From assembly GCA_043811535.1 (NCBI GenBank), contig JBDRNC010000018.1, positions 108,455-172,454 on the forward strand: 64,000 nucleotides of DNA, given 5' to 3'. Positions 771-61,697 of the stretch are shown piece after piece; the stretch's first letter is position 1, and each line of letters opens with the position of its first letter. The stretch is from Elusimicrobiota bacterium (lineage in GTDB: Bacteria; Elusimicrobiota; Endomicrobiia; Endomicrobiales; JBDRNC01). The notes under the pieces are model-generated. The model ran no database searches, had not been told where the DNA came from, and saw nothing but the letters and a program-made list of their open reading frames with translations. The translations under genes and the position numbers were made by a program.

Positions 771-852
771 GATTACACAGATTTTGAACTACGATTCCAC
801 GGATTTTAACGACTATTACACTGATTTCCAACAAAGATTACACTGATTATTA
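771..852. repeat. GATTACACWGATT 13-mer array (4 direct copies, 22-bp phase) between mfd and the PPIase gene
   Basis: gattacacagatt / gattccacggatt / attacactgatt / gattacactgatt, each separated by 9 bp. Confidence 0.75.
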
Positions 853-879
853 ATGCAGGTTTTAGGATAATCCATGCGG

Positions 880-3800
880 TCAGTATTTTGGGATTATAAC
901 ATATTCTTTGAATTTTAACAAGAATCTTTTTAAATATTCAAAGGCATTTTGCGCCGGTTTTTCCTTTTTAAGCCTTACCCCCTGCTGCTCGCCGCGTATG
1001 AATTCCAGCGTTTCGCTGAAATCCCTTGCCAATGCCGCTATTTTTTCGGCCGTAAAACCTATCCTGTCCGAAAAGTACACTTCAAAATGGTCCTGCTTCT
1101 CGGATATACCCTTGATCTTCAATTTTTCCGCGATAACCCGGAGCTCCGCTATCCTGAAAAGGTTCTCGGCGGGGTCCGGGATTCTGCCGAACCTGTCCTC
1201 AAGTTCGTCCCTGACCGCATCAAATTCCGGCGCGGACGCGACGGCGGCGAGTTTTCTGTAAAAGATGATGCGCAGCTCTTCGGATTCCATGTATTCCGGC
1301 GGGAACAGGGCGGGCACGGAGAAATCCATCGTGGCCTTGAACTCTTCCTCCGGCTCCGGCCTCTCGCCCTTAATGCCCTTGCTGGCCTCCTCTATGAGCC
1401 TGCTGTAAAGCTCGAATCCGATCTCCCTGACAAATCCGTGCTGCTCCCTGCCGAGTATGTTGCCCGCGCCGCGTATCTCAAGGTCGCGCAGTGAAAGCCT
1501 GAATCCCGAGCCGAGCTCTCCGAATTCCTGAAGCGATTCCAGCCGCTTTTCGGCGTCCGATTTCAGCAGCGATTTGGTGTAAAACAGGTAGCAGTAGGCC
1601 TTCTGTTTTTCGCGGCCGATGCGCCCCCTAAGCTGGTACAACTGCGCCAGCCCGAAGTTCTCGGCCTCTTCCACCACCATCGTGTTTGCCGAAGGTATAT
1701 CCAGCCCGGATTCTATTATGGTTGAGGCGACCAGCACGTCAATCTTCCTGTGCATGAAATCCCACATGGCTTTTTCTATCTGCGCGGCCGGGAGCTGGCC
1801 GTGGACTATGCCGAACTTTACATCGGGCATGAGCTTTTTCAGGTACGCGACGCGCGAAAGTATGGTCTCAACGCGGTTGTAAACATAGAAGACCTGCCCG
1901 CCGCGCGATATCTCCGCCTGTATGATTTTCTTCACTACGCGCTCGTCGTAAAGGCCAAGGTGCGTTTCTATGGGCAGGCGTCCCGCGGGCGGCGTCTCAA
2001 TGACTGAAAGGTCCCTTAGGTTGGCCAGCGCGAACGCGAGCGTGCGCGGGATGGGCGTCGCGGACAGCAGGAGGACCTCTATGTTTTTCTTCAGCGCCTT
2101 TATCTTTTCTTTTTCTTTCACGCCGAACCGGTGCTCCTCGTCGATAATAAGCAGGCCGAGGTCCTTAAACGATATATCTTTCTGGATGAGCCTGTGCGTA
2201 CCGATGACAATGTCCACCAACCCGTTTTTAATATCAGCTACTGTCTTTTTCTGTTCTTTCTTGCTCTGAAATCGGCTCATCATGGCGACATTCACCGGAA
2301 ACGGGGCAAGCCGGTTCACGAACGTGTTATAGTGCTGTTCCGCCAGCACCGTGGTCGGCACGAGCACCGCCACCTGCTTCTCGGCTACGGCCACTTTAAA
2401 CGCCGCGCGTATCGCAACCTCGGTCTTTCCGTATCCCACGTCTCCGCAGATCAGCCGTTCCATCGGCTGGGCCCTGCGCAGATCGGCCTTGACTTCCTCT
2501 ATCGCTCTCAGCTGGTCCTCGGTCTCGGAATACGGGAAGGAATCCGCGAGCTCTTTCTCCCACGCCGTTTCCTCCGCGTAAGGCGTGCCGGTAACCTTGC
2601 TGCGCTCGGCGTAAAGCCTTAAAAGTTCCGCGGCCATTTTCTCGGCGCCTTCCTTGGCGCGTTTTTTCAGGCGTTCCCACGCCGCGGTGTCAAGCGAGTG
2701 CAGGCGCGGCCTGCATCCTTCTATGCCGATGTATTTCTGTACGACGCGGAAATCGTCCACGGGAACGTAGAGTTTGTCGCCGCCCCTGTACTCAACGCAG
2801 ATATATTCCGCCTCCTGGTCGCCCCTGACTATTTTCTTGAGACCCAGGTACTTCCCTACGCCGTATTTTTCGTGCACGACGTAATCGTTCGGCGTGATCT
2901 CCCACAGGCCCTCAAGGCGCCTTCCGGCCTTGAATTTCGGGAAACTGACCGGCCTGCGCCTGTAAAGTATCTCCTGGCCGCTGAAAACCGCAAGTTTCCG
3001 CGAAGGCGAGTAAAAACTTTCCGCAAGCGGGCCGATATGCATTTCCGGAAGCTCGTCACGCCACTTGTTATCGTTCAATATCTCTTCAAGGCGGTCCTTC
3101 TCGCCCTGATGGGCGCAAAACACCATAAGGCTGTAATTCTGTTCCCTGAATTTTTTCAGGTCGGAGATAAACGCGGGGAAATTACCGGCCCACCTGCCCA
3201 GCGGCCTGAATCCCGCGTCAACCGGACCGGCTCCAAGCGCGCTGTTAACAAGGATTTCCCTCCCTCCCGCCGCCGAAGCAGTTTCATCGGACGGCTGAGC
3301 GTCAAAATATACCTGCGCGCCCGCGGGAAGATAATCCGCAAGCGCCGTCTCGGCCCGGGCCTTGGCCCCGTTAGAAGCAGGTCCCGCTAAAACACCATCA
3401 CTACCGGCGCCCGAAGCCGTGGAACTTCTAACGGGGTGAACCGGCAACACGCGGATTTCTTTCAGCATTTTATCGGAACGCTGCGTCGCGACGTCAAAAC
3501 TGCGGATGGTTTCCACGGTATTGACGTCAAAGACTATCCTGACCGGGCTGTCCATGTCCGGCGTCCAGATGTCCAGGATTTCGCCGCGCCTGCTGAAATG
3601 GCCCCTGTCTTCCACAAAATCCTCGCGCTGGTACCCGTTGTCCGAGAGAGCGGACAGGGTTTTTTCGTAATCGCTGGTTTTTCCCAAGGAAAATACCATT
3701 GTATTTTTCTTCAAACTGTCCGGCGAAACGGTTTTCAGCGCGAAAGATTCCGGCGTGGCAAGTACCACGCATGGAAAAGCCCCCGCGCTGAGGCGGTCCA

Positions 3801-4008
3801 GCGTATTTATGGATTCAAAAGGGTCGTATTGAAGGTATTTATAGATAGATACGGACGGAAAGAACTTACCGAGCGCCAGCAGGTTATCGTGCCACGCCTG
3901 AATATCGTCTTCCGCGGCGACGGCGACAATGACCTTCGCTTCCGCGAGCTTTTCAAGGATGAAGTAGGCCTTGCCCGAACCTGATAAACCGGTGTAGTAT
4001 TTTATCAT
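880..4008 (-). CDS. mfd: Transcription-repair coupling factor Mfd
   Basis: 1042 aa with a UvrB-like N-terminal region and a CarD/TRCF domain (VVHEKYGVGKYLGLKKI). It carries a RecG-like SF2 helicase with DEEHRFGV and LSATPIPRTL motifs. Confidence 0.9.
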   Translation of the reverse strand: MIKYYTGLSGSGKAYFILEKLAEAKVIVAVAAEDDIQAWHDNLLALGKFFPSVSIYKYLQYDPFESINTLDRLSAGAFPCVVLATPESFALKTVSPDSLKKNTMVFSLGKTSDYEKTLSALSDNGYQREDFVEDRGHFSRRGEILDIWTPDMDSPVRIVFDVNTVETIRSFDVATQRSDKMLKEIRVLPVHPVRSSTASGAGSDGVLAGPASNGAKARAETALADYLPAGAQVYFDAQPSDETASAAGGREILVNSALGAGPVDAGFRPLGRWAGNFPAFISDLKKFREQNYSLMVFCAHQGEKDRLEEILNDNKWRDELPEMHIGPLAESFYSPSRKLAVFSGQEILYRRRPVSFPKFKAGRRLEGLWEITPNDYVVHEKYGVGKYLGLKKIVRGDQEAEYICVEYRGGDKLYVPVDDFRVVQKYIGIEGCRPRLHSLDTAAWERLKKRAKEGAEKMAAELLRLYAERSKVTGTPYAEETAWEKELADSFPYSETEDQLRAIEEVKADLRRAQPMERLICGDVGYGKTEVAIRAAFKVAVAEKQVAVLVPTTVLAEQHYNTFVNRLAPFPVNVAMMSRFQSKKEQKKTVADIKNGLVDIVIGTHRLIQKDISFKDLGLLIIDEEHRFGVKEKEKIKALKKNIEVLLLSATPIPRTLAFALANLRDLSVIETPPAGRLPIETHLGLYDERVVKKIIQAEISRGGQVFYVYNRVETILSRVAYLKKLMPDVKFGIVHGQLPAAQIEKAMWDFMHRKIDVLVASTIIESGLDIPSANTMVVEEAENFGLAQLYQLRGRIGREKQKAYCYLFYTKSLLKSDAEKRLESLQEFGELGSGFRLSLRDLEIRGAGNILGREQHGFVREIGFELYSRLIEEASKGIKGERPEPEEEFKATMDFSVPALFPPEYMESEELRIIFYRKLAAVASAPEFDAVRDELEDRFGRIPDPAENLFRIAELRVIAEKLKIKGISEKQDHFEVYFSDRIGFTAEKIAALARDFSETLEFIRGEQQGVRLKKEKPAQNAFEYLKRFLLKFKEYVIIPKY

Positions 4009-4111
4009 AGTAAAGAGATTACAGATTACATATTACATATTACAAATTACATATTTAACGACTGATATTCTTTCAATTTGAAATATGCAATTTGGAATTT
4101 GTAATTATTAT

Positions 4112-6430
4112 CTATCGCGCGAGTGATCCGGCGCGAAACATCGAAGCTATTTTCAGCGCGAGCAGCATTATCACCATCCCGGGCAGGCCCCAGGCAGGTA
4201 TTATCACCGTTCCGCCGATAAGCGCCGCAAGCCACCCGCCCATCAGGTCGGCCGCGTAAATCTTTCCCGCCTCTGCGTGTTCGCCGGTTTTTTTAATTTC
4301 CCCTTCGGCGGGAGCCAGCGCCGGGAACTGAAACCCCAGGAGCGCCCCCGACCCCGCCGACAGCAGAAATAGTAAATGCCATGGGATTTTCACAAAACTC
4401 AGCAGGCAAAACCAGATAATTATCCAAATCACGAACAATATGTCTATGATTCTAATAATCTTTTTTGGTGAATTGGTAATTGCTAATTGATAATTGTTAA
4501 TTGCGGCGTACGCCGCAATACCAGTTCCCGCCATGAAACACGCGCTCAACAGGCCTATCCAGTAATAGACCGCGCCGTTGAGCACCTGCATACCCCAGAT
4601 GCTTACCATCTGCATTCCCATCGCCGCCGCGCCGGAAGTGAATGCCGTGCCGGAGTACCCGCGACGGGTGAAAAGCAGAATCATCGTCAAAATGACGGCT
4701 ATCCATATGTATTTAGACAACGCGGAATAGAGATTGGCCCGCCCCGAAGAAAAAATACTTTGACGGTAGATAAGCGACTTGAAGAGCCCGCGCGGAGAAA
4801 AATCCCTGTTTACGGGCTGTTTCCCGAAAAATCCGCCCTCGTGTTTCTTCATTTCATTCAGAAACCATTTTTCTTTCGCCGGGTCCAGCTTATACTTTAT
4901 GTATTTGGCGGATACAAATAATTTTTCAATTTTTAAATCCTTAAATCTTTCAACCGCCGTTGCCGTTCTGGGCGCCGGCGAATTCCCGCAAATAAAAATA
5001 TTTCTTTCCCCCGGAATGACCCTGACATGTTTGAACGAGCCGTTGAGACCCGATAATACCGCGGCGTTCATCCCGCCGAGGTACCTGTCGACGTAATTCA
5101 TCGAGCCGGGCAGACTGATAACGAATATCCCGCCCGGGGCAAGGCGCCGGTTCACCGAATCAAAGAACTCTAACGTGTAGTACCTGTTTACGGAAAGCGC
5201 AGCCGGATAGGGCGCGTCTACGAAAACGGCGTCATAGCTCTTGCCGGACCCCTCAATATATTTTCTGCCGTCTTCGTAAAATACATTAACCCCTCCCCCT
5301 TTCTCCGAAAAGGGGCGCGGCCCCCACGGGGCTTTACTCCCCTCTTTCCCAAAGAGGGGAGTAGCGGAATTGCGCGAAACGAAGTCTATCAGCCACGGGT
5401 TTATCTCCACGTAATCCAGCGATTGTATTCCGTATGCCTGTATAGTCGTGATATACCTTCCCGTTCCGCCTATTAAAAGGACGCTCTCCGGTTTGGCATG
5501 AAAAAGCAGAGGCAGAAAAACGTTGTTTTCCGCGGCCTCTTTATTCGGCGCGTTGAAAGTTTCGATCGGATTGCCGTCGGAAAAGAAGAACTTCTCGCCG
5601 CCGCGCGATACCGCCGCCAGCCGGCCGTACTGCGTGTTCTGCGCCTCAACCACCTTGTATCCCGCGAATAACCTTGACAGGCTGGTAGTCTCAATTTTAT
5701 TGCTGAATAACAGCACCGGAATGAAAGCCGCGGCGAAAACCGCAAGCATTATTTTCTGTTTTTTTTCTTCAATGATGGGTATGACTGCCAAGGAAGATAT
5801 CTGGAGTATAGCGGTAGCAACAAAGACCGAATTGGCGTTCAGAAGCAGCGAAAGCGTGTAAACAACTCCGCCCGCGAAGAAGCCGAGCGTTTCCCATAGG
5901 TAAATCCTGCCCGATTTAAGGAGCCCTTCGCGTTCCTTGAGCCAGCCCATGCCTAAACTGAACTGCGCGCCTATCAACGCTCCCGCCGGGATGAATATGG
6001 ACGCCGAAACCCATAGGAGAAACAGCAAAGGCAATTCAATGCCGGCTAAGAAACCGAAAATATTCCTTATTTCCCTTATAAAAAACATCGAAAGCATCAA
6101 ATACGGGCCTGCCGCCAGAAACGTTAAGGCAAGAATCCCTCTGCATTCTTCCGTCCCGCGACAGGGGACGTCGGTATTATTATGCTTAAAGTGCTCCGCC
6201 CCGCGACAGGGGACGTCGGTATCAGAATTACGCTTAAGGTGCTCCGCCCCGCGGTTTTTCACAAATTTCGCGGTAAGAATGCTCCCGGCGGCGACGCCCA
6301 GCATCCACAGCGAAATCACGAGCCCGATGGACAGTTCGTTGCCGTGAAAAACGACCTGGATCTCCCGCAGCAGGAACGTCTGCGCGCAAACCGCGATAAA
6401 CCCGGAAAGGAAAAAGACTGAATTAAACAT
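4112..6430 (-). CDS. Membrane-anchored spermidine synthase-like polyamine aminopropyltransferase (N-terminal multi-TM domain fused to a SpeE-like domain)
   Basis: 772 aa with a hydrophobic N-terminal half. The C-terminal half has spermidine synthase motifs (VLLIGGTGRY..., DAVFVDAPYP, GGIFVISLPGS). It contains in-frame repeat insertions; see findings. Confidence 0.75.
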   Translation of the reverse strand: MFNSVFFLSGFIAVCAQTFLLREIQVVFHGNELSIGLVISLWMLGVAAGSILTAKFVKNRGAEHLKRNSDTDVPCRGAEHFKHNNTDVPCRGTEECRGILALTFLAAGPYLMLSMFFIREIRNIFGFLAGIELPLLFLLWVSASIFIPAGALIGAQFSLGMGWLKEREGLLKSGRIYLWETLGFFAGGVVYTLSLLLNANSVFVATAILQISSLAVIPIIEEKKQKIMLAVFAAAFIPVLLFSNKIETTSLSRLFAGYKVVEAQNTQYGRLAAVSRGGEKFFFSDGNPIETFNAPNKEAAENNVFLPLLFHAKPESVLLIGGTGRYITTIQAYGIQSLDYVEINPWLIDFVSRNSATPLFGKEGSKAPWGPRPFSEKGGGVNVFYEDGRKYIEGSGKSYDAVFVDAPYPAALSVNRYYTLEFFDSVNRRLAPGGIFVISLPGSMNYVDRYLGGMNAAVLSGLNGSFKHVRVIPGERNIFICGNSPAPRTATAVERFKDLKIEKLFVSAKYIKYKLDPAKEKWFLNEMKKHEGGFFGKQPVNRDFSPRGLFKSLIYRQSIFSSGRANLYSALSKYIWIAVILTMILLFTRRGYSGTAFTSGAAAMGMQMVSIWGMQVLNGAVYYWIGLLSACFMAGTGIAAYAAINNYQLAITNSPKKIIRIIDILFVIWIIIWFCLLSFVKIPWHLLFLLSAGSGALLGFQFPALAPAEGEIKKTGEHAEAGKIYAADLMGGWLAALIGGTVIIPAWGLPGMVIMLLALKIASMFRAGSLAR

Positions 6431-7077: not shown

Positions 7078-9408
7078 TCACTTGCCGCTATTCACTGCCG
7101 CTTTGTCTATCTTCGCTTTCAATTCGTCCAGGATAATCCGCGGCTCATTGTTTTCCCCGGCCGTAAACGGGTCGGACAGCAGGTCCGATTCCAGTTCCGA
7201 CATCAGCGCGAGCATCATGGCGTTATGCGGCTTCCAGTACTCCTCCGAACACCATTCCGTCAGCCATACCGGTTTATTCCCGTCCTTCGGCGAAACGAAT
7301 CCGTTTGGGATGCCTCCGAGCACCGGCCCTTTGCCGATATCCGCCATCATCACATGCGGGTTTGTCGTGCCTTTCCCGCTGACCATGCAGAAGCCCGAAG
7401 GATTCGCGCCCAGCACCCAGCCAATCTGGTCCGCCGCGATCCTGGCGAATTCGGGGTTGCCGGTAAACCGGGCGTAGCGCAGAGCTATCAATCCGTATGA
7501 CATGGTATCGCAGTTGAACCCGTGGTCCGTCATCGGGCATCTCGGAGACGCGAAATAATAAAGCTTCATGTCCGTTTGCGCGCCTTCAGGCGGCTCAAGC
7601 GCCTGCGCCGCCTTGCCGAAAGGATTGAGTTCCGCCGCCTGCCTGATAAATCCGTGTGCAAAATAATCCATGGCGAAACGTATCCTTGTTCTAAGCGCAT
7701 CGTCATCTTTCAGCGCTTCCGCCAGTTCCATCAGGCCGAGATAGACGCCTATGGAATGGACGAATTTATACTGGTAAGTGAAATCGGATTTATCGGGTTT
7801 CCAGAAGAACATCCCGAAAATCTGTTCCTGGCTGCGTTTGTAATCAAGGAATTGCGTCGGAAGTATTTTTTCCGCTGCCGCTTTGGCGGTTTCCAGATAC
7901 TTCGCGTCTCCCGTAACTCCGTAAAGCCGCGTGCTCGCCCACAGGTACATGCCCAGATACTGGATGCCGTCAAGGTTCTGGCGGCCGAGGTACTCCCACG
8001 CCTTCACGGCGGCGTCAAGCGATTCTTTCGCCAGTTCCGGGTCCTTTTTTTCCAACGCCCTGTAAACCTCGGCCATGGTCACCGCATACGCCCCCTCAAC
8101 TTCGGGGGCGTATATATCCATTAAGTAACAATCATCGGTGTCCTGCTCCGGGGTGATATCTTCTAACCAGCAGTCCTTGCGCTTGCTTTTTACGGCAAAA
8201 TAGACATGTCCGCTCGCGGGATTCTGCATGTCAATACAGAAACGCGCGGCGTATTTTATCTCGTCAATAGGGTCAAAACCCTTGGCTGGAATTTCGCCTG
8301 ACAGCAGGTTCTGCCAGCGCGCCATGGCCCATACCCAGGTCGGCGTGGTGCTCATCCACCTTTCAATATCCAGTTCCGTGTCGTAATACCCGCCGGGCAC
8401 GGGGTTGGAATGCTTGGGCTTCTTGGGATAGCGCGTGAATTTTATGTAGTGGAACTGCGATTTGCTCAATTCCCCCGCGATAACGTTCTTTTTAATCTCG
8501 AACGGATACGATTCCGCTTCCATCGGCTTGTCTCCCGAAGGCAAAACGGCCTTTAAAACATAGCGCCCGGGCTGTTCAAGTTTGTCAAACGAGACGATCC
8601 AGTATTGCCCCGGCCACAGTTCGGAGTTTTTAAATTTCCGCGCTTTTCCGGATTCAATCACCTTGCGTCCGGGCAATGAGAGGATGCTGTACTCCATCGG
8701 CGCGTCAACTTCCGCTTCGCTGTTATTCAGCTGGATGACCGCCCGCTTGTTCATCCCGGGGTCAAAACCTATCTGGTTCATCAGTATCTGAATATGGGAA
8801 TTGGCGCCTATCTGCTCCAAACCGGCAAGTTCTATCCATCCATTGCCGCCGTGGCGCGTGTTGTAGGAATTTGCGACGGCTATATCCAACTTGAAAGGAG
8901 GTTCGGGCGTCTTGTTGGAGCCGCCGTAGTTATAGACCAGTTCTTTCATGTCAATTGTCTCTTTGCGCCACCCGGATGTTTTCGCGCCCGAATGGAATGC
9001 CCGCATGAAGACCCCGCCGTCAGCGTCGCCGAATTTAAGGTCAAACTTATTCGGCATCCCCTTGCCGCGTATCCAGAAGCTGATTCTTCCCGCTTTGGAG
9101 ATATCAACGGCGGCCGGCTTCACGAACCATACCCACGCGCCGTTCGGAGCGTCAACAGGCAGTTCGTATTCCACGCGCAAAGCGTCCCCGTGAGGGCTTG
9201 GCACGACTGACAGGGAGGCCTTGCTCCGGTCATCCGCCGATCCGCTGCTCCAGCCACTCAAGCTCTCAAACGCTTTAACAGGGACGGTAGTCAGCTCGCT
9301 GGTAGGCCCCCAGCCTTGTTTTGTATCGCAGAATTTCCCACCGCCGTACGCCGTGACAGCCAATCCCGCGGCCAGCGCAAACATCAACTGAATGAATTTG
9401 ATTTTCAT
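7078..9408 (-). CDS. Secreted carbohydrate-active-enzyme-like protein (N-terminal CBM/CIA30-like beta domain plus C-terminal (alpha/alpha)6-barrel-like domain)
   Basis: The start is moved to the internal Met (MKIKFIQLMFALAAGLAVTAYGG signal peptide) with AAGGAG 6 nt upstream. The C-terminal region resembles six-hairpin glycosidases (DGIQYLGMYLWASTRLYGVTGDAKYLETAKAA). The exact GH family was not resolved. Confidence 0.45.
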   Translation of the reverse strand: MKIKFIQLMFALAAGLAVTAYGGGKFCDTKQGWGPTSELTTVPVKAFESLSGWSSGSADDRSKASLSVVPSPHGDALRVEYELPVDAPNGAWVWFVKPAAVDISKAGRISFWIRGKGMPNKFDLKFGDADGGVFMRAFHSGAKTSGWRKETIDMKELVYNYGGSNKTPEPPFKLDIAVANSYNTRHGGNGWIELAGLEQIGANSHIQILMNQIGFDPGMNKRAVIQLNNSEAEVDAPMEYSILSLPGRKVIESGKARKFKNSELWPGQYWIVSFDKLEQPGRYVLKAVLPSGDKPMEAESYPFEIKKNVIAGELSKSQFHYIKFTRYPKKPKHSNPVPGGYYDTELDIERWMSTTPTWVWAMARWQNLLSGEIPAKGFDPIDEIKYAARFCIDMQNPASGHVYFAVKSKRKDCWLEDITPEQDTDDCYLMDIYAPEVEGAYAVTMAEVYRALEKKDPELAKESLDAAVKAWEYLGRQNLDGIQYLGMYLWASTRLYGVTGDAKYLETAKAAAEKILPTQFLDYKRSQEQIFGMFFWKPDKSDFTYQYKFVHSIGVYLGLMELAEALKDDDALRTRIRFAMDYFAHGFIRQAAELNPFGKAAQALEPPEGAQTDMKLYYFASPRCPMTDHGFNCDTMSYGLIALRYARFTGNPEFARIAADQIGWVLGANPSGFCMVSGKGTTNPHVMMADIGKGPVLGGIPNGFVSPKDGNKPVWLTEWCSEEYWKPHNAMMLALMSELESDLLSDPFTAGENNEPRIILDELKAKIDKAAVNSGK

Positions 9409-13004: not shown

Positions 13005-13090
13005 AGTTTTTTGGCGTTTAGCGTACGGCGTATCACCTTAAGAGGTCGTCTTCTGTTTCCCGCTTCCTGCTCCCTGCTTCCTTCTTCCGT

Positions 13091-15160: not shown

Positions 15161-15463
15161 TCCGCCGCGAACCCAAGAGGACACTTAATTAAACATCCAA
15201 TTGCATGCCGATATTCTATCAAATAACACTTCGGAAGTGTTAGAGCGGTTATGGTGACCAATACAACTTCGTAGGTTGTATCGGTTTAAGCGCGAACAAC
15301 TGCGGGATATATATCCCGCACCCCCGCGGATATGTCATATTTATATTGAAAATACAATGCGAATATATCCCGCATTTTATCCCGCATTTATCCCGCACTT
15401 CAGGGCCGCGGATATCTGCGGGATAAATCTATTCTGGTAAAGCCTGACGCCGTTTCTCAATTT

Positions 15464-15979: not shown

Positions 15980-16172
15980 TGATGCCTCCTGGATTTCACT
16001 TCATTCCTACCTAAGGAACTACAGCCCTTTTTTGAAACGCGGGAAACGGGGTCAACTTGACAACTTAAGCGACTTCTCCTTCCCTTTTACGACTAAATGT
16101 ATCTTTTGTCGATTTATGCGCCATCACAACGATTTTATTCTATAATTTTGGGTTGTTTTTTGCAAGAATATA

Positions 16173-16224
16173 AAGGGGACGGTTCTATTTTTTCTGAAAG
16201 AAAAATAGAACCGTCCCCTTTTTT
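16173..16224. terminator. Bidirectional intrinsic terminator hairpin, member of a 3-copy repeat family (GGGGACGGTTCTATTTTT...AAAAATAGAACCGTCCCC), followed by a TTGCAA-N17-TAGAAT promoter
   Basis: Perfect long inverted repeat flanked by A/T tracts on both sides. Confidence 0.6.
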
Positions 16225-17392: not shown

Positions 17393-17444
17393 AAGGGGAC
17401 GGCTCTGTTTTTCTTTTAGAAAAAAATAGAACCGTCCCCTTTTT
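17393..17444. terminator. Second copy of the GGGGACGG...CCGTCCCC terminator module (TTGCAA-N17-TAGAAT promoter for mscS adjoining)
   Basis: Same repeat with 2 mismatches. Promoter seen on the minus strand at 17350-17378. Confidence 0.6.
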
Positions 17445-18904: not shown

Positions 18905-18958
18905 AAAAAAGGGGACGGTTCTATTTATTCTGAAAGAAAAATAGAACCGTCCCCTTTT
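18905..18958. terminator. Third copy of the GGGGACGG...CCGTCCCC terminator module between the MATE gene and the radical SAM gene
   Basis: Same repeat, flanked by promoters facing both ways. Confidence 0.6.
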
Positions 18959-20123: not shown

Positions 20124-20176
20124 ATTGAAGACGGAAGACAGAAGAATGAAGCAAACCCAAAAACATGGAACAATAA

Positions 20177-21727
20177 ATGAAAATACATTCTTTATTTAAT
20201 AAGTACTTCCATCTTCCTTCTTCCATCTTCCGTCTCGTCCTGGCTTCCATCTTCCTTCTTCCATCTTCCGTCTTGCCTGCCGTCAGGCAGGCAGCAGTGG
20301 CGGGGCAGTTCTATCCCGATAATCCCAATGAGCTTTCGGCCATGGTTCAGAATTATCTTGACCAGGTGCCCGCGATAGCGCTTGACGGCGAGCCGGTCGC
20401 GGTCATGGTTCCGCACGCGGGATATATTTTCTCGGCAAAAACCGCGGCATACGCTTTCAAACTGATAGAGCAGACCGGCGCGGAAAACGTGATACTCATC
20501 GGCAACAGCCACCGTTTTTATCTAAGCAAAGGCGCTGTTGTTTCCGAAGGCAAATTCAAGACGCCGCTCGGAGAAGTGGAAATAAACAGCGAACTCGCCA
20601 GGAAAATCCTGGCAAACACTGCGCTGCTGGAAGAAAACGCGCAGGCGCACGCGCCGGAACACTCGCTTGAAGTTGAACTCCCGTTTTTGCAGAAAACACT
20701 TAAGAAATTCAGGATAGTGCCCATACTTTTAAGCGAAATGCCGGTTTCAAGGTGCGAAGCGATAGGAAAGGCAATTGGAAAGGCGGTCGCGGAACTCGGG
20801 ATTAGCAAAAAAACCATCATAGTGGCCTCAAGCGACATGTCCCACTATCCCCGTTACAAAGACGCGAAAATCTCGGATAACAGGATACTGGAATCCGTTA
20901 AGAAATTTGACCCCGCGGTATTGGCGGCGACTGACGCGGCGATAAAAAGAGATAATATTTCCGAACTTCAATGCACGCTCTGCGGGCTTGAATCAGTCTG
21001 CGCGGCGATGTACGCGGCCAGGTATCTCGGCGCGACTTCGGTAAAAGTGCTTAACTACACGAACTCCGGCGACGCTTCCGGCGATACGTCAAGAGTGGTC
21101 GGATACGGCTCCGTAGTGTTCTATAGACCCGGAAAGATTATAAAAACAGCCGTAAAAGAGGTAAAGGCCATGGATGAATTCAAGGTAAGCGAGAAAGGGC
21201 AGAAAGCCCTGCTGAAGATCGCCAGGGAATCCATTGAAAGCTATCTGAAAACCAAAAAACTTCCGTCTTTTGACGTTACCGACAAGGAGCTTCTCGCGCC
21301 GGGCGCGGTTTTCGTAACACTTACCGAAAAAGGCGGCTTGCGCGGATGCATAGGCACTACCGTAGCCCAATCGCCGCTTTACCAGGCAGTGAGCCAGCTG
21401 GCTGTCGCGGCCGCTGTGGAGGACACGCGCTTTCCGGAAGTAACGGCCGGCGAGCTGAAAGATATACACATCGAAATATCGGTGCTTTCACCGCTGACTA
21501 GAATTAAGAACGCTGATGAAATACTCCCCAACAAGCACGGCGTTGTAGTCAGAAAAGGTTTCAGAAGCGGGCTGTTCCTACCCCAGGTCTGGGAACATTT
21601 CAACAAAAAAGAAGATTTCATGGACGAGCTCTGCTGGCAAAAGGCGGGCCTTGACCGCAATGCCTGGAAAACCAGTGAAGTAGAGTTATATATATTCACG
21701 GTATTCGCGTTTGAAGAAAGCAAATGA
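20177..21727 (+). CDS. Fusion of AmmeMemoRadiSam system protein B (Memo-like) and protein A (AMMECR1 domain), with an N-terminal hydrophobic extension
   Basis: Memo motif AVAGQFYPDNPNEL...MVPHAGYIFS in the N-terminal half. AMMECR1 motif LRGCIGTTVAQSPLY in the C-terminal half. About 37 aa of hydrophobic leader precede it. Confidence 0.75.
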   Translation: MKIHSLFNKYFHLPSSIFRLVLASIFLLPSSVLPAVRQAAVAGQFYPDNPNELSAMVQNYLDQVPAIALDGEPVAVMVPHAGYIFSAKTAAYAFKLIEQTGAENVILIGNSHRFYLSKGAVVSEGKFKTPLGEVEINSELARKILANTALLEENAQAHAPEHSLEVELPFLQKTLKKFRIVPILLSEMPVSRCEAIGKAIGKAVAELGISKKTIIVASSDMSHYPRYKDAKISDNRILESVKKFDPAVLAATDAAIKRDNISELQCTLCGLESVCAAMYAARYLGATSVKVLNYTNSGDASGDTSRVVGYGSVVFYRPGKIIKTAVKEVKAMDEFKVSEKGQKALLKIARESIESYLKTKKLPSFDVTDKELLAPGAVFVTLTEKGGLRGCIGTTVAQSPLYQAVSQLAVAAAVEDTRFPEVTAGELKDIHIEISVLSPLTRIKNADEILPNKHGVVVRKGFRSGLFLPQVWEHFNKKEDFMDELCWQKAGLDRNAWKTSEVELYIFTVFAFEESK

Positions 21728-21828: not shown

Positions 21829-22431
21829 ATGATAAATGGTTTCTTATTAGGTTTATCCAACAATCTCTTCTGTTTCCTGAACTGCGCCGTGGTATTCATC
21901 CCCTACGCGCTGGCATCCAAAAACAAATCTTACATCTCGATAACCCTCTTCATGGCGGGGCGGCTGATAGCCTACGTATTTTTCGGTTTTGCCGCCGGTT
22001 ACACGAGCTTATACTTTGACGGGCGCATTGACCCGCTCTATTACCATTTTTTCACTCTCCTGATGTCGCTTTGGCTCATCGCGTTCGCGCTGGGAAAATT
22101 GAATCTCAAGCTTTCCGCGTGCGCGTGGATGGGCAGCAGATTTTCGGGAAAGACCTTCCCGCTTTTTCTGGGAATCCTGATGGGTCTGAACATCTGCCCG
22201 CCGTTCATGCTGGGGCTGAGCGAAACACTGCAGATGAGCAGCGTGCTGAAGCCGGTCGTTTTCTTTCTGGGGTTTTATCTGGGCTCCAGCCTGTGGCTTC
22301 TTGTTTTTCTTTTCACAGGGAAGCTCGCGCAGCTCAAATTCATCAGTTTGTCTGCCAAGATAATCTCACTTCTCGTAGGACTCTACTACTTCGGAATATC
22401 CGTTTCAAAATTGGCATACTTTATCTTATAA
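21829..22431 (+). CDS. Hypothetical polytopic membrane protein with Cys-containing TM motifs (FCFLNC, NICPPF), possibly partnered with the AmmeMemoRadiSam genes
   Basis: 200 aa with about 6 TM helices. It sits about 100 bp downstream on the same strand. No confident family assignment. Confidence 0.45.
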   Translation: MINGFLLGLSNNLFCFLNCAVVFIPYALASKNKSYISITLFMAGRLIAYVFFGFAAGYTSLYFDGRIDPLYYHFFTLLMSLWLIAFALGKLNLKLSACAWMGSRFSGKTFPLFLGILMGLNICPPFMLGLSETLQMSSVLKPVVFFLGFYLGSSLWLLVFLFTGKLAQLKFISLSAKIISLLVGLYYFGISVSKLAYFIL

Positions 22432-22435
22432 CAAC

Positions 22436-22551
22436 GATTACACCGATTTTTAACAAAGATTACACGGATAATTAATCTGTGGAATCAGTTGTAAATCTGT
22501 GTAATCGTCTTAATTAATCTGCGTAATCGCTGTTTGTTATCTGTGTAATCG
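22436..22551. repeat. GATTACAC 13-mer array: 2 forward plus 5 reverse-orientation copies downstream of glnK
   Basis: gattacaccgatt, gattacacggata, then aatctgtggaatc, aatctgtgtaatc, aatctgcgtaatc, tatctgtgtaatc at 20-23 bp spacing. Confidence 0.75.
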
Positions 22552-22559
22552 TAGTATAA

Positions 22560-22628
22560 AAGAAGAAGGACCCGGGTGACGCCCAACCCTTTCCGGCCCA
22601 ACGGAAAGGTACCCGAGCCCTTCAAAAT
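22560..22628 (-). terminator. Long GC-rich imperfect hairpin followed by U-tract on the minus strand; probable glnK terminator
   Basis: GAAGGACCCGGGT...CCCTTTCCG..CGGAAAGG...ACCCGAGCCCTTC; the minus strand continues UUCUUCUUUU. Confidence 0.4.
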
Positions 22629-22708
22629 AAATTACAGATTCCAGATTACAAATTTAACGTCTTTAAGTCTTCAATATGTAATCTGTAATTTCCAATTTGT
22701 AATTGTTT

Positions 22709-24638: not shown

Positions 24639-24720
24639 GTAATCTGTGTAATCTCGTTAATAATCCGTGTAATCGTTGTCTGGAATCTGTGTAATCTTTG
24701 TTTTAAGCCGCGTAATCGTC
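24639..24720. repeat. GATTACAC 13-mer array within the amtB 5' leader (4 copies)
   Basis: aatctgtgtaatc, aatccgtgtaatc, aatctgtgtaatc, gccgcgtaatc. Confidence 0.7.
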
Positions 24721-24829: not shown

Positions 24830-24940
24830 TTCGAATCAGTGTAATCGTCTTTGAAATAGAAAAAGCCCTCAAATCAACCTTTGACCTGAGGACTTCCTTG
24901 TCCTATATGTATATTATACTCAAAAAATAATTTCTGTCAA
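24830..24940 (-). promoter_or_regulatory. Promoter plus conserved leader: hexaloop hairpin and intrinsic-terminator attenuator upstream of amtB-glnK (copy 1)
   Basis: On the minus strand, TTGACA-N16-TATAAT, then AGGACAAGGAAGUCCU (loop AAGGAA), then CCUCAGGUCA...UGAUUUGAGGG followed by CUUUUUCUAUUUC, then GATTACAC motifs. Confidence 0.5.
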
Positions 24941-27602: not shown

Positions 27603-27644
27603 CCGTTATCCCCTTGATTTACATTTATCATCTGTGTAATCGCT

Positions 27645-27780
27645 TCTCCAATCAGTGTAATCGTCTTTGAAATAGAAAAAGCCCTCAAATCAAAAATGAT
27701 CCGAGGACTTCATTGTCCTGTCTGTTATCGTTCCTGCTATATTATATGGATATTTTAGCAGTTAATACATATTTGTCAAG
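27645..27780 (-). promoter_or_regulatory. Promoter plus conserved leader attenuator upstream of the PPDK_N-domain gene (copy 2)
   Basis: On the minus strand, TTGACA-N16-TAAAAT, then AGGACAAUGAAGUCCU (loop AAUGAA), then CCUCGGAUCA-UUUU-UGAUUUGAGGG followed by CUUUUUCUAUUUC. About 90 nt are near-identical to copy 1, with G·U-compatible substitutions in the stem. Confidence 0.5.
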
Positions 27781-32528: not shown

Positions 32529-32727
32529 AATGACACCAATTGAAAGATTACAAGATTTAAAGATTACAAGATTATTATTAAAATACCGTTAGCCTTCAAT
32601 CTTTGTAATCTTTCCAATCTTTTAATCATGTAATCGTAGTTATATTCCCAATTCTTTAATCAACTCTTCCCCGCCACTACTGCTTTGGCGGGCCCGCCAA
32701 CGTCTCAGTGGCGGGCTTATCATATCT

Positions 32728-35479: not shown

Positions 35480-35584
35480 ATGCCGACTCCTAGTGCTTAG
35501 CGATTAGAGAATGGTGCTTAGGAAATGACGGAATATGCTTCAACTATTCCCTTGTCCCTATTCCCTGTTCTCTATTCCCTCTAT

Positions 35585-39331: not shown

Positions 39332-39472
39332 GATTACTCCTTACTGTAAAGCAGGGTCCAGTAGCCAAGGTCCAGGGTCCAGGAAAACACTAAAAAATAA
39401 TTACAAATAATAGTGCGGTACGCAGCCAGTTTTGTCTTCCGTCTTCCGTCTTCCGTCTTCCGTCTGCGGTCT

Positions 39473-40279
39473 TCAGTTCCCTGTTTTAGGGGTAATCAAG
39501 ATTGAAGTGTCCTTGCCCATCATGTACTGGGGAAGATGCCCGTCCCATTTGGCTATCCATTGGAGGGCGATACCCTTGTCTGAAACCGTCTCCTTGAGCA
39601 TCTGCTGTTTTCTGGCTTCCCCTTCAGCGTCAAGAATAACGCGTTTCTTGTTTTCCTCCGCCTGCATCCTCTGGTACTGGGCCGTCTTGATCTTCTGCTC
39701 TTCTATCTGTTTCTGTTCGACAACCTTATTGAATTCATCGGCAAAGTCAATGTCAACCAGATTTACGTTTTCCAGTATTATATTATACGTCAACAAACGC
39801 TTTGCCAGAAGGCTCTCTATTATGGCTTTAACGCTCTCTCTTTCAACGATAATCCGCTCGACCTGATACTGGGAAACAGCGGCCTTTACCGCCTCATTTA
39901 CCGCCGGCTCGATCACTTTCTGCATGTAATCTCTTCCCACTTTCACGTATATCTGGTCAACCATCGTGTAGTCCAGGTGGTAATTCAGGACTGTTTCCAT
40001 TTTTACAAGCTGAAGGTCCTTTGAGGCGCCTTCGGCAAGTATGTCAAGGCGCTGCGTCTTGACATCGAACTTGTTTACCGTGTGAACGATAGGTATCCTG
40101 AAATGAGTTCCCTGCGAGTACGACGCGGTCTCTCCGCTGATGTTATTGAAAGTCACGCCCACCTGGCCCGGTCCCACCACGAATATCGGGTTGATGATAA
40201 GCGCCGTAAAAAGGACCACAAGTCCCGCGGCAATAAGAGTAACAGTCTTGAACGGATTTTTTCCTAAATCTTCCAGCAT
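39473..40279 (-). CDS. SPFH/band-7 (prohibitin/HflKC-like) membrane protein
   Basis: N-terminal TM helix followed by an SPFH domain and a coiled-coil tail. Confidence 0.75.
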   Translation of the reverse strand: MLEDLGKNPFKTVTLIAAGLVVLFTALIINPIFVVGPGQVGVTFNNISGETASYSQGTHFRIPIVHTVNKFDVKTQRLDILAEGASKDLQLVKMETVLNYHLDYTMVDQIYVKVGRDYMQKVIEPAVNEAVKAAVSQYQVERIIVERESVKAIIESLLAKRLLTYNIILENVNLVDIDFADEFNKVVEQKQIEEQKIKTAQYQRMQAEENKKRVILDAEGEARKQQMLKETVSDKGIALQWIAKWDGHLPQYMMGKDTSILITPKTGN

Positions 40280-40325
40280 TTTATGCCTCCTTTACTAATT
40301 TGAGATTGTTGAAAAACCCCAACAA

Positions 40326-40423
40326 TCTCTGATTACACTGATTATACAAAGATTACACAGATTAAATATCCGTGTAATCGTTTCTAAGAATCTATGCAAT
40401 AAGTGTACCCAATCTGTGTAATC
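40326..40423. repeat. GATTACAC 13-mer array upstream of the SPFH gene (includes GATTACACAGAT-N6-ATCCGTGTAATC palindrome)
   Basis: Seen directly. Confidence 0.7.
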
Positions 40424-40583
40424 AAGGCCGTTGAGGACTTTTCCAACGGCCTCAATTTAGCTTCCGCATTCACCAATATATTTAAATGCAGATATGCGGC
40501 CATGCAACCAGCGGCCGGTAGCCGTTCAAACACTAAATACTAAAAACTAAATCCCGCTTTCGCGGGAATGACAAAGCCCCTGC

Positions 40584-41575: not shown

Positions 41576-41658
41576 CCAAAAACGTATCTCGGGACTCGTA
41601 TCTCGTCGTTCGTAGTATGCCTTACGAGATGCGAGATACTAGATACGAGATACCGTAG

Positions 41659-42842: not shown

Positions 42843-42935
42843 TGTTCCTCCAAAAACCCGTATCTCGTATCTAGTATCTCGCATCTCGCAAGACCTGTTT
42901 CGAACGACGAGATACGAGTCCCGAGATACCGTCGT

Positions 42936-47334: not shown

Positions 47335-47425
47335 TGTGTGTGCCATGTTTCCTCCCTCCGCTGGCATTACCCAGATCAGGTTTTTGCGGTAATCCCGTTA
47401 CTACGGGAACTCTCAGGCCGTTATA
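47335..47425 (-). ncRNA. TPP (THI-box) riboswitch controlling thiM-thiE
   Basis: The minus-strand sequence GGCCUGAGAGUUCCCGUAGUAACGGGAUUACCGCAAAAACCUGAUCUGGGUAAUGCCAGCGGAGGGA matches the TPP aptamer core (CUGAGA ... ACCUGAUCUGGGUAAUGCCAGCG ... GGGA). Confidence 0.8.
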
Positions 47426-47524
47426 CGACCTCCCTTGATGTCAATTAAACCGAAGTGCCTAGTATAGGTACGACCTCCCTTGATGTCAATTAAACCGAAG
47501 TGCCTAGTATAGGTACGACCTCCC
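47425..47524 (-). promoter_or_regulatory. Tandem 45-bp direct repeat (2.2 copies) whose junctions form a consensus sigma70 promoter TTGACA-N17-TATACT upstream of the TPP riboswitch
   Basis: Unit ACGACCTCCCTTGATGTCAATTAAACCGAAGTGCCTAGTATAGGT is repeated exactly. On the minus strand each junction reads TTGACAtcaagggaggtcgtaccTATACT. Confidence 0.65.
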
Positions 47525-53500: not shown

Positions 53501-53633
53501 ATACCCCCCATTTAACAGTATATTTGTAATTTCTAGTTTCGAGTTTACTTTACGATAGATTCTTCGCTTTGCTCAGAATGACATCTTTTTTGTCTTTCAC
53601 GAGATACGAGATGCGAGTCCCGAACGACGTTTT

Positions 53634-56846: not shown

Positions 56847-57066
56847 TTCTATCCTCCGTTAGATCGAGACAAATTCAAAATCCAAATGACAAAATATAAC
56901 AACAATTTCAAAGCATAAAACATTTTGGATTTAGATATTTGAATTTATTTTGCGACTTCATTATTATTTTCAATGGAGTCTCCCCGAAAGAGGGACTTCG
57001 GTTAAATAAATAGCAGATGGTCGCATGCGAAGTCGGATCATTTGTGCTTTGTCATTTGAATTTGCA

Positions 57067-58148: not shown

Positions 58149-58245
58149 GATTACACAGATTATTAACAACGATTACACTGATTTATAACAAAGATTACGA
58201 GGATTTCAAACAGAGATTACACTGATATAAATATCTGTGTAATCA
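58149..58245. repeat. Array of phased 13-mers GATTACACWGATT (4 direct copies at 22-bp spacing plus an inverted copy forming a 14-2-14 palindrome) upstream of mnmA
   Basis: Seen directly. The same 13-mer family occurs at nine or more other intergenic loci. Confidence 0.8.
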
Positions 58246-60013: not shown

Positions 60014-60023
60014 CTGATATCCT

Positions 60024-60473: not shown

Positions 60474-60636
60474 ATTATTCCGTGTCCTAGAATATTAACT
60501 GAATGGACTTTAATTATACAAAAATTATACAAATATTATGCACTTTACCCAAATGTAAGTTGACGGTTGACTGTTGACTGTTGACAAAGATTAAGAGTTT
60601 TACCGTCCATCTGTCATCTGTGAACTGTCAACGCTG

Positions 60637-61563
60637 TTATTCGCTAAAGAGCCATGTCGACAGGTATCTCTCGCCCGAATCGGGTAAAAGAACTACTATT
60701 GTTTTTCCCGCTGTTTCGGGGCGTTTTGTCACTTCAAGCGCCGTCCAGAGAGCCGCGCCGCTCGATATTCCGGCAAGGATGCCTTCTTCCTTCGCAAGCC
60801 TCCTTGCAGTAATGCCTGCGTTTTCGGTAGTTACCTGTATTATCTCATCCACAACTTTAATATTCAGCACAACTGGGACAAAACCGGCGCCTATCCCCTG
60901 CAGTTTATGCGGGCCGGGCTTACCTCCGGACAAAATCGGAGAATCCTGCGGCTCAACGGCTATTATTTTGACTCCTGGCTTCTTTCTCTTCAATACCTCT
61001 CCGACACCTGTAATCGTTCCTCCGGTCCCGACTCCGGCGATGAAATAATCTACGTTCCCATCTGTGTCGTCCCATATCTCTTCGGCCGTGGTTTTCCTGT
61101 GTATCTCAGGATTGACCGGATTGTTGAACTGCTGGGGCATGAAGCTGTGCGGGGTCGTTTTGGCAAGCTCATCCGCTTTATCAATCGCGCCGCGCATGCC
61201 CTTGGTCCCGTCGGTAAGCACGATTTCCGCGCCCAGTATTTTAAGCAGCTGCCTGCGTTCAACGCTCATGGTTTCAGGCATAGTAAGTATCAATTTATAT
61301 CCTTTCGCGGCGGCAACGAACGCCAGCGCGATGCCGGTGTTCCCGCTTGTCGGCTCAATTATGACGGTGTCTTCCTTAATTAAACCTTTTTTCTCGGCGT
61401 CCTCTATCATCGCCAGGCCTATCCTGTCTTTCACGCTTGACAAAGGATTGAACGACTCCACTTTGAGCAGAATCGACGCCTTCGCGCCCCGAGACATTCG
61501 GTTCAGCCTTACGAGCGGCGTGTTGCCGATTGTTTTTGTTATGTCTGAATAGATTTTTGACAT
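60637..61563 (-). CDS. cysK: Cysteine synthase A (O-acetylserine sulfhydrylase)
   Basis: PLP-lysine motif [11 protein letters not shown] and the TSGNTG and GxGTGGT loops. It has the conserved leader. Confidence 0.9.
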
Positions 61564-61625
61564 GGAACACCTCCTGTGTTGTTTTATATTGCCTTATGTG
61601 ACATCCCCGCAGCGAAGCGGAGCGG
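61564..61625 (-). promoter_or_regulatory. Conserved 5' leader motif copy upstream of cysK (Shine-Dalgarno inside the AACAC/GUGUU hairpin loop)
   Basis: GGATGTCACATAAGGCAATATAAAACAACACAGGAGGTGTTCC-ATG. Confidence 0.55.
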
Positions 61626-61645
61626 GATTTTAACCTCCGGAAAAT

Positions 61646-61697
61646 GATTACACTGATTTCAAACAGAGATTACACTGATTATAATCTGTGTAATCGT
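61646..61697. repeat. GATTACAC 13-mer array upstream of the cysK leader, with a 28-bp near-perfect palindrome GATTACACTGATTATAATCTGTGTAATC
   Basis: Seen directly. Confidence 0.75.

Follow-up and report, generated by a model that had tools for sequence, protein, structure and literature searches.

The bacterial repeat systems that lie nearest to the case reported here are REPINs, which are built from repetitive extragenic palindromes (REP), with their REP-associated tyrosine transposases, RAYTs (Nunvar 2010; Bertels & Rainey 2011, PMC3116915), and miniature inverted-repeat transposable elements (MITEs) such as Correia/NEMIS, ERIC, RUP, Nezha, and Chunjie (PMC3184786). TAACTGA heptamer repeats have been described in Beggiatoaceae, Cyanobacteria, and Bacteroidetes; their distribution is patchy, crosses phyla, was noted as similar to that of XisH/XisI, and was left with "no mechanism evident" (MacGregor 2015, PMC4679880). 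The GxxExxY proteins (PDDEXK_3) are listed as "Unknown" in a survey of PD-(D/E)XK nucleases, with multiple transfers (PMC3424549). The present study concerns a 64,000-nucleotide stretch of Elusimicrobiota bacterium contig JBDRNC010000018.1 (positions 108,455 to 172,454; hereafter the window), in which the 13-mer GATTACACWGATT recurs in phased, inverted arrays between genes. We propose, with a probability of about 0.6, that these arrays are the repeat arms of a selfish element which encodes a GxxExxY nuclease, the window copies being gene-less and partly decayed.

That the arrays are linked to the GxxExxY element family is, taken alone, very likely, and most likely the window arrays are not the landing pad of a host regulator. 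The partnership is widespread and apparently undescribed. In the open-access literature, no paper linking GxxExxY to flanking repeats was found, although database curators may have recorded the link elsewhere; MacGregor 2015 (PMC4679880) does not mention the family, and a literature search for the 13-mer strings returned a chance primer match only.

Phased 13-mer arrays in the window

On both strands of the window, GATTACACWGATT had 15 exact matches, compared with 0.00 expected from 100 dinucleotide-preserving shuffles. When up to two mismatches were allowed, 31 matches were found, against 2.0 expected and 5 in the largest shuffle. The start-to-start distance between neighboring same-strand copies was 21-22 bp in 15 of 18 pairs, and Tandem Repeats Finder reported period-22 arrays at 764-853, 22429-22552, 24641-24698, and 58149-58226, so that the spacing of about 22 bp given in a preliminary description of this DNA was reproduced. 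Almost all of the copies with at most one mismatch were intergenic (29 of 30), though 88% of the window is covered by open reading frames (ORFs); the arrays are not equally frequent in coding DNA, which was the check on positional bias that the preliminary description had proposed.

The arrays occupy seven spacers and amount to eight array loci per 64 kb, with many copies arranged as inverted pairs. An array usually has two arms, n direct units (+) followed by n inverted units (-), with the GATT ends pointing to the center, and solo arms also occur; the single 13-mer is not palindromic. The copy number and the arm composition vary freely. The spacers concerned are short and mostly lie between co-directional genes, the arrays being 4-27 bp away from a stop or start codon, and some arrays are located at 3' ends, between convergent genes.

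Of the ten places given earlier, those in the seven spacers contain true 13-mer arrays. The exceptions are the three sites called degenerate, which consist of 7-8-bp units with a different periodicity and the core ATTACA(N) or AAGATTAC, and which are related to the 13-mer arrays. Both palindromes quoted at that time are present, at 61668-61695 upstream of cysK and at 58215-58244 upstream of mnmA, and the identities of both genes were confirmed. The arrays are not CRISPR, as had been judged, because the repeat is 13 bp, the spacers are 8-10 bp and A/T-rich, an array has two to six units, and the layout is that of two inverted arms. Nor are they a replication origin; they are dispersed, and no rep gene was found among the annotated array neighbors.

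Occurrence of the same array in other genomes

A pattern scan for two phased units, with one genome per species, gave at least 118 stretches, and the counts in this section refer to the matches listed from it. The matches came from Deltaproteobacteria/Thermodesulfobacteriota, Elusimicrobia, Omnitrophota, Nitrospirae, Planctomycetia, Bacteroidota (including cultured Mucilaginibacter species), Patescibacteria, Alphaproteobacteria, Clostridia, and others. The canonical form, two direct and two inverted units ("++--"), was found 62 times with a modal length of 83-84 bp. The 21-22-bp spacing was kept in 174 of 244 same-strand neighbor pairs, and the arm order was "+ then -" in 92 cases versus "- then +" in 2. 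The center gap ranged from 1 to 47 bp and was most often 14-15 bp; it is 2-4 bp in the window. Only 5.8% of the units lay inside ORFs, versus 84% coding sequence. The positions of the 13-mer were 88-99% conserved except position 9, and the spacers were A-rich and not conserved. Judged from this conservation of the 13-mer across phyla and not of the 9-bp spacers, the arrays look like helically phased protein-recognition sites.

An identical array stands next to unrelated genes in many phyla, including rpsG/fusA and rpsK/rpsD. In two Mucilaginibacter species, arrays separate rpsG from fusA, and in a Planctomycete they separate rpsL from rpsG; these gene identities were inferred from ORF size and clustering.

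One subfamily, of 150 bp, carries hairpins on both sides of the core (TTAACAG-hairpin-core-hairpin-CTGTTAA); its window copy is at 40302-40453. Twelve copies from several metagenome-assembled genomes (MAGs) show 86% column identity, and their flanking hairpins carry compensatory changes. When window positions 40299-40457 were aligned with 11 loci, the ends read TTAA-CAG ... CTG-TTAA in 8 of the 12 copies. Several copies in one MAG have the same central spacer, as do copies from different MAGs; gene-less units thus multiply in this form too.

A phage vector was considered and rejected, as only 10 stretches were found in 2.9 million viral contigs and no PHROG match was obtained. The ten viral-labelled IMG/VR contigs with a phased 13-mer pair are L208-L217 (loci are designated L with a number); in L208 and in L216, a distance of 2-5 kb separates two arrays of opposite orientation.

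A GxxExxY nuclease gene lies between the arms in several loci

All ORFs of the at least 118 loci were clustered to find recurrent families near the arrays. Among the loci listed, GxxExxY, a protein of about 120 amino acids (aa), was the sole ORF family that recurred inside or against the arrays; no transposase was seen, the recurrent array neighbors being housekeeping families and GxxExxY only. The gene is intact in L104 (737-1182), L084, L118, and L067, and C-terminal remnants lie beside half arrays in L025 and L073. In L104, L084, L118, L207, L222, and L119-L133, it is flanked on both sides by repeats in inverted orientation. Its start and stop codons overlap the inner repeats, and the gene is fitted codon-exact between the inner units.

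The protein matched TIGR04256 (E values 6.5e-38 and 5.6e-44) and PF13366 (PDDEXK_3; 4e-36 and 2e-42), and the residues E..D..ExK are invariant. Its predicted fold is closest to the Cas4/RecB-type PD-(D/E)XK nucleases; no solved structure related by sequence to GxxExxY was found. Among 1.84 billion proteins, the family comprises 26,943 representative clusters when the cutoff is E <= 1e-3, and 9,157 when it is E <= 1e-10. Many relatives are 250-295 aa long and contain two domain copies as tandem fusions (e.g., P0361, P0362, P0367, and P0370), an arrangement which would fit action as a dimer. A defense system was also considered and rejected, as PADLOC gave only weak Cas4 matches.

On plasmids of cultured strains, flanking repeats of the same kind occur in variable geometry, with one inverted pair in Treponema, repeats in direct orientation in a Fusobacterium, and repeats on one side only in Sphingomonas. 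In the last case, the Sphingomonas parapaucimobilis plasmid NZ_CP155749.1 (L206), the annotated GxxExxY gene (482837-483265) stands between fabD and fabG, from which 33 bp and 2 bp separate it, and GCGAAGG-type repeats are present upstream only.

Repeats around GxxExxY genes co-vary with the protein

The association was also examined from the side of the protein. A metagenome scan with the GxxExxY protein alignment gave 579 confirmed relatives among 600 candidates, of which the best 80 loci were kept; 64 genes had full flanks. The 160 bp upstream of these genes and the reverse complement of the 160 bp downstream had a median of 9 common 7-mers, compared with 2 in 160 shifted controls (Mann-Whitney p = 5e-24). 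For 39% of the genes, versus 0.6% of the controls, some exact 7-mer was present at least twice on both sides.

The repeat differed between clades of the protein. Relatives 52-61% identical to the query carry GATTACAC(A/G)GATT or GATTACAG(C/T)GATT, and other clades carry ACAGGAT-type (31 loci), CACNGAT-type (13), and GGGGAT- or CGCCAAG-type repeats. The core common to the repeat classes is ACA(C/G)(A/G)GAT. For the GATTAC, ACAGGAT, and CACNGAT classes, protein identity was 0.558 within a class versus 0.452 between classes, a difference that was reached in 0 of 2000 permutations, and in 53 of 58 cases a protein and its nearest neighbor belonged to one class. For the ACAC and ACAG variants of the GATTAC class (GATTACAC and GATTACAG), agreement with the nearest protein neighbor was seen in 13 of 17 cases.

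Gain or loss of gene and arms together at an orthologous site

In L207 (Deltaproteobacteria bacterium RBG_16_49_23), a GxxExxY gene is located between rpsK and rpsD. It is flanked by two copies of GATTACACAGATT (9958 and 9980) and by two inverted copies (10368 and 10390); the inner + unit contains its ATG (as ...CACAGATG), and the inner - unit overlaps its stop codon, TAA (as TAATCTGTGTAATC). The same site was compared in relatives with 93-94% RpoA identity. In L222, it is filled as in L207. In L218, the gene is absent and one intact unit with debris is left in a 151-bp spacer. The spacers of L219, L220, and L221 are 41-52 bp long and contain a 10-nucleotide vestige only (GAATGTAATC or GAATGGAATC) with an adjoining hairpin, which is also common to L218 and L220/L221. 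The L207 and L222 gene copies are 82% identical at the amino acid level and 79% at the nucleotide level, and both keep the catalytic residues; the flanking genes have 88-93% nucleotide identity.

For the window itself, the relatives were contigs L199-L203, whose AmtB is 79-85% identical. No GATTACAC arrays were found in the spacers of these contigs. From rubrerythrin to amtB, L201 and L202 keep synteny with the window, and the spacer between the glutaredoxin and reductase genes is 47 bp without an array in L201 but 199 bp with an array in the window. The preliminary description had tied a regulatory role, beforehand, to conservation of the arrays in relatives; the syntenic spacers of the relatives are without these arrays, and that role did not hold up. 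L199 has other inverted arrays on both sides of the P-II gene, at 3974-4060 (AAGATTG units) and 4418-4500 (CCTTGGG/CCAGGGT units). Since the closest relative of the amtB locus has different arrays, spacers turn over between array families.

A nuclease-encoding element as the proposed source of the arrays

The linkage of gene and arrays, the co-variation of repeat and protein clade, and the gain or loss of gene and arms as one unit at an orthologous site were observed here. On this basis, a complete element would consist of at least two direct 13-mers, a gene for a GxxExxY (PDDEXK_3) nuclease of about 120 aa, and at least two inverted 13-mers; the gene-less "++--" arrays and the decayed solo arms would be to it what REPINs and MITEs are to their autonomous partners. 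The nuclease, probably a dimer, may recognize the 13-mer (core CAC[A/G]GAT). Two sites per arm at 21-22 bp would put the subunits on one face of the helix, and the two inverted arms could assemble a symmetric complex. Cleavage would then drive copying, with a filled copy as the template for homing-like repair or else through excision and insertion, and gene-less arrays would be kept or multiplied in trans. Since the start and stop codons of the nuclease gene lie inside the inner repeats, binding would autoregulate this gene. Gene-less units arise both by decaying in place, as in the rpsK/rpsD series, and by multiplying as such, as in the 150-bp subfamily. To the host, the arrays would mostly be passengers in transcribed spacers and 5' leaders.

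Several points weigh against this proposal. There is no GxxExxY gene in the 64-kb window, and a trans-acting nuclease elsewhere in the genome is assumed. The gene is present in only about 4-6 of the approximately 160 arrays among the matches listed from the pattern scan. Neither element ends nor target-site duplications nor transposition intermediates were defined. The center gap of 1-47 bp does not sit well with a rigid dimer cutting in the middle, and sequence-specific binding is putative for a PD-(D/E)XK protein of 120 aa with no separate DNA-binding domain; the substrate could be RNA. The geometry is not uniform either: the genes of L141, L145, and L151 lie beside complete "+++---" arrays, some GxxExxY genes are placed between direct repeats, and L205 is among the exceptions. 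The rpsK/rpsD series can be read equally well as pure decay, and the taxonomic labels of MAGs may be wrong via mis-binning. Finally, these genomes contain numerous further heptamer arrays for which no GxxExxY partner was shown.

A broader reading is tentative and, in our estimate, does not reach even odds: GxxExxY genes with clade-specific phased inverted arrays may form an undescribed pan-bacterial class of self-propagating elements, whose gene-less offspring would explain a large part of the so far unexplained short tandem and inverted repeats in the intergenic spacers of many phyla. Such a class would follow a REPIN/RAYT-like logic with a Cas4/RecB-like nuclease, and the heptamer arrays, the TAACTGA-like repeats, and perhaps the cyanobacterial short tandemly repeated repetitive (STRR) sequences would be its offspring.

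Alternative explanations

The arrays might instead act at the RNA level, their transcript hairpins in 5' UTRs or between cistrons, or their protein-binding repeats, setting mRNA stability, processing, or translation in the way of REP and bacterial interspersed mosaic elements (BIME), with GxxExxY as an RNA endonuclease or an unrelated passenger. We consider this unlikely. The arrays do lie in transcribed positions, namely, co-directional stop-to-start spacers, ribosomal-protein operons, and sites downstream of promoters and terminator-like hairpins. Sigma-70 consensus promoters were identified at 24940-24913 (12/12) and 27779-27752 (11/12), and the leaders of amtB and of the phosphoenolpyruvate (PEP)-utilising enzyme gene have the order promoter, terminator-like hairpin, array, and start codon, with 26-27 bp to the ATG. 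As the array is downstream of the promoter and the hairpin, the arrays there sit in transcribed leaders and not at promoters. The preliminary description had placed the arrays between genes, mostly in promoter or 5' UTR regions; in both readable leaders they follow the promoter. Its two attenuator leaders are plausible from the sigma-70 consensus, the terminator-like hairpins, and the arrays behind them; no Rfam family matches, and a permissive Rfam scan of the two leaders gave nothing credible. Post-transcriptional roles have also been proposed for the analogous TAACTGA repeats (MacGregor 2015, PMC4679880).

As to folding, the "++--" cores reached -25.5 kcal/mol versus -11.0 for shuffles (z = -3.7 to -6.6), and the flanking hairpins of the 150-bp subfamily have compensatory changes. 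However, the cores fold because inverted repeats must. The spacers of the + arm are not complementary to those of the - arm (identity to the reverse complement 0.365, compared with a between-element null of 0.468), and the free position 9 shows no covariation (0.477 observed, 0.48 expected). The four-unit solo arm at 771-848 is unstructured at 0 kcal/mol. As the spacers do not pair and solo arms are unstructured, it is the sequence of the 13-mer that is under selection, and a pure hairpin or structure model was rejected. Furthermore, the four window arrays that are single-orientation or uneven occur in both orientations relative to the gene strand, and arrays are not conserved at orthologous spacers. 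Flanking hairpins are not a general part of the element, being restricted to one subfamily; 27% of the flanks reached -8 kcal/mol or lower versus 16% of the controls, which was not significant.

The leaders have a further motif of their own. AAGGA(C)AAGGAAGTCCTC...GAGGGCTTTTT, a terminator-like hairpin, lies at 24853-24900 and 27678-27711 of the window (minus strand), behind consensus promoters, and is conserved in relatives (L199, 650-865; L200, 1618-1861; L201, 4981-5086 and 5814-6001). In the window and the relatives, it precedes amtB, the PEP-utilising enzyme gene, and GATase_4 genes. This motif, which has no Rfam match, may be a nitrogen-related attenuator or a riboswitch-like element.

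It is quite improbable, in our judgment, that the arrays are ordinary MITEs, with the arms serving as multi-site terminal inverted repeats of a DDE-type (Mu/Tn7/IS21-like) or other transposase encoded elsewhere and GxxExxY being a frequent passenger or preferring to insert into such repeats. By analogy, inverted ends with at least two phased sites each, about 22 bp apart, recall the ends of Mu, Tn7, and IS21; most arrays are gene-less; and the TTAACAG...CTGTTAA ends of the 150-bp subfamily are compatible with a TTAA target duplication. This TTAA could be a target duplication or part of the element, and nothing recognizable as a target-site duplication flanks the arrays outside this subfamily. 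However, in the loci listed (at least 118), no transposase family recurs near the arrays and GxxExxY is the only recurrent ORF inside the arms, the gene is fitted codon-exact between the inner units, the repeat class co-varies with the GxxExxY clade, and the outer ends begin with GATTACAC, unlike the TG...CA ends typical of Mu/Tn7-type elements. The fallback reading of the preliminary description, a MITE-like repeat, nevertheless comes close to the conclusion reached here, in which the arms belong to a nuclease-encoding element.

A host regulon, in which an abundant transcription factor or nucleoid-associated protein would bind the arrays cooperatively and control the genes beside them, is very unlikely: the 13-mers are indeed conserved, helically phased, intergenic, and near start codons, and several neighbors belong to sulfur or nitrogen metabolism (cysK, metX/metW, and amtB), but the arrays are missing from the corresponding spacers of relatives, stand in identical form beside unrelated genes in many phyla (ribosomal-protein genes included), lie downstream of predicted promoters at 4-27 bp from coding sequence and in some cases between convergent genes, and are free to vary in copy number and arm composition. 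The footprint of an abundant DNA-binding protein that the preliminary description had suspected therefore survives as a set of phased protein-recognition sites and not as the mark of a host global regulator or nucleoid protein, given the relatives without arrays and the unrelated neighbor genes.

Features of the window and other repeats

The individual arrays, the related heptamer and octamer arrays, and further elements of the window are listed in Table 1. In a whole-window Rfam scan at gathering thresholds, only the TPP riboswitch was found, and the window has no tRNA genes. Other window spacers contain arrays of 7-11-bp tandem units (GTATCTC/GAGATAC, AGACGGA/CTTCC, GCGGGATA, GTCTTCC, CAGGGTC, and others) at 41584-41653, 42860-42929, 53599-53617, 20129-20274, 15290-15427, 56871-56946, 39352-39474, 13053-13088, and 35544-35580; several of these are inverted two-arm arrays, and others are tandem only. 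Including the 13-mer family, inverted arrays are present in at least 14 of the 41 window spacers of 50 bp or more. In L207, the S10/spc/alpha ribosomal-protein operons have an inverted heptamer array in nearly every enlarged spacer (1174-1257, 2135-2239, 3528-3622, 4225-4304, and 7792-7921), and the unit differs per spacer (GGAATAG, GAAAGTG/GTGGAAA, TTGAGGC, and others).

Table 1. Arrays and other features of the window (positions count from its first nucleotide; strand is given as +, -, or. for none)
Feature	Position	Strand	Context and evidence
Solo arm, four direct units (771, 793, 814, 836)	771-848	+	131-bp spacer from mfd stop (880) to PrsA-like gene start (748); sequence and Tandem Repeats Finder; fold 0 kcal/mol
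Array "++----": direct 22436, 22458; inverted 22474, 22494, 22516, 22538	22436-22550	.	4 bp past the stop of a DsbD_2-family gene; single-stranded DNA fold -24.6 kcal/mol, z = -6.6
Solo arm, four same-orientation units	24641-24717	-	27 bp upstream of the amtB start codon (24613)
Isolated exact 13-mer	24834-24846	-	Same amtB leader
Two same-orientation units	27629-27662	-	26 bp upstream of the start of the 861-aa PEP-utilising enzyme gene; downstream of terminator-like hairpin 27711-27678
Left flanking hairpin GAGATTGTTGAAAAACCCCAACAATCTC, hairpin-flanked subfamily	40302-40329	.	Alignment with 11 copies from other MAGs
Core array "++--", units 40331, 40351 / 40367, 40411	40331-40423	.	
Right flanking hairpin AAGGCCGTTGAGGACTTTTCCAACGGCCTC	40424-40453	.	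Compensatory changes relative to the AAGGCTGTTGA...TCAACAGCCT form of other genomes
Array "++++-"	58149-58244	.	Occupies the entire 105-bp spacer from metW stop to mnmA start; inner pair is the palindrome GATTACACTGATATAAATATCTGTGTAATC
Array "++--"	61646-61717	.	Between the stop of the O-acetylhomoserine sulfhydrylase gene and cysK; inner pair is a 28-bp palindrome (61668-61695); fold -16.8 kcal/mol, z = -5.9
Related inverted array, ATTACA(N) heptamers	4017-4107	.	Fills the 103-bp spacer upstream of mfd
Related inverted array, ATTACAG-type heptamers	22629-22698	.	Directly downstream of the P-II gene
Related inverted array, AAGATTAC octamers	32524-32632	.	199-bp spacer between glutaredoxin and thioredoxin-reductase-like genes
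Long imperfect hairpin	22560-22620		Between the convergent DsbD_2 and P-II genes, separating the 13-mer array from the heptamer array
Thiamine pyrophosphate (TPP) riboswitch	47336-47446	-	56.6 bits (gathering score 54.3)
Perfect 45-bp tandem duplication	47424-47524		2.2 copies, 100% identity; overlapped by the 5' part of the TPP riboswitch
Near-perfect hairpin AAAGGGGACGGTTCTATTTTT / AAAAATAGAACCGTCCCCTTT, three intergenic copies	16172-16221, 17393-17441, 18907-18958		20-21-bp stem; separate repeated element that resembles a bidirectional terminator
45-bp tandem repeat	6150-6253		2.2 copies, 88% identity; inside the 772-aa ORF 4112-6430

Implications and comparison with known systems

The results tie a large, functionally unassigned nuclease family to a defined DNA motif, and the 13-mer, its layout, and the cultured hosts (Mucilaginibacter) provide a biochemical handle. 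A concrete, testable mechanism is also offered for patchy cross-phylum intergenic repeats for which "no mechanism is evident" (PMC4679880). Should the nuclease prove sequence-specific and as small as about 120 aa, technical interest is possible. In annotation, these arrays should be treated as repeats to be masked, not as regulatory sites.

Among the known systems, CRISPR has repeats of about 23-55 bp with unique spacers of similar length, whereas here 13-bp repeats are separated by 8-10 bp. The ends of Mu, Tn7, IS21, and Tn402, as well as plasmid iterons, have several phased sites with a spacing of about 20-22 bp, and the two ends of a transposon are mutually inverted. The present arrays differ from them in that no MuA-, TnsB-, or IstA-type gene and no rep gene or origin context was found; the surroundings are housekeeping spacers. 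PD-(D/E)XK homing enzymes exist (e.g., I-Ssp6803I). Free-standing homing endonuclease genes are alike in that a small nuclease ORF fits snugly into conserved operons (rpsK/rpsD and fabD/fabG) and in that filled (L207, L222) and empty or vestigial (L218-L221) alleles exist at rpsK/rpsD. In contrast to these, the GxxExxY gene brings its own repeated arms, and gene-less arms are found at many unrelated loci.

The TAACTGA and cyanobacterial STRR repeats share with the arrays the form of tandem repeats in spacers, often just upstream of start codons and in ribosomal-protein operons, with relatives that lack them; the window also has 7-8-bp arrays (ATTACAN, GTATCTC, CTTCC-type, and others). The 13-mer arrays differ from these repeats in their 22-bp period, their strict two-arm inverted layout, and their linked protein family. 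Bacterial MITEs are likewise shorter than 200 bp and A/T-rich with inverted ends, lie between genes or within operons, and are present or absent between relatives; the units here are 83-150 bp, and the 150-bp subfamily has defined TTAACAG/CTGTTAA termini. The differences are that a DDE transposase partner was not found, that the ends are repeated phased units, and that the candidate partner is an uncharacterized nuclease. There is a gene-bearing form whose arms are identical, but what it encodes is no known transposase, and its mobility is putative.

The REPIN/RAYT system has in common with the arrays the short, non-coding, intergenic, multicopy repeats in inverted pairs, the small gene flanked by inverted repeats, the co-variation of the repeat with the protein clade, and the excess of gene-less units, which far outnumber the gene-bearing ones. 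The partner here is a PD-(D/E)XK nuclease (PF13366), however, and not a Y1 HUH (IS200/IS605-like) transposase. REP sequences are GC-rich hairpins with a GTAG head, whereas the phased 13-mers are non-palindromic and need no pairing. The 13-mer repeat also spans phyla, while the REPIN/RAYT papers describe mostly vertical inheritance. Although two defining features of REPIN/RAYT are missing, the arrays and the GxxExxY gene are closest to this system in their logic.

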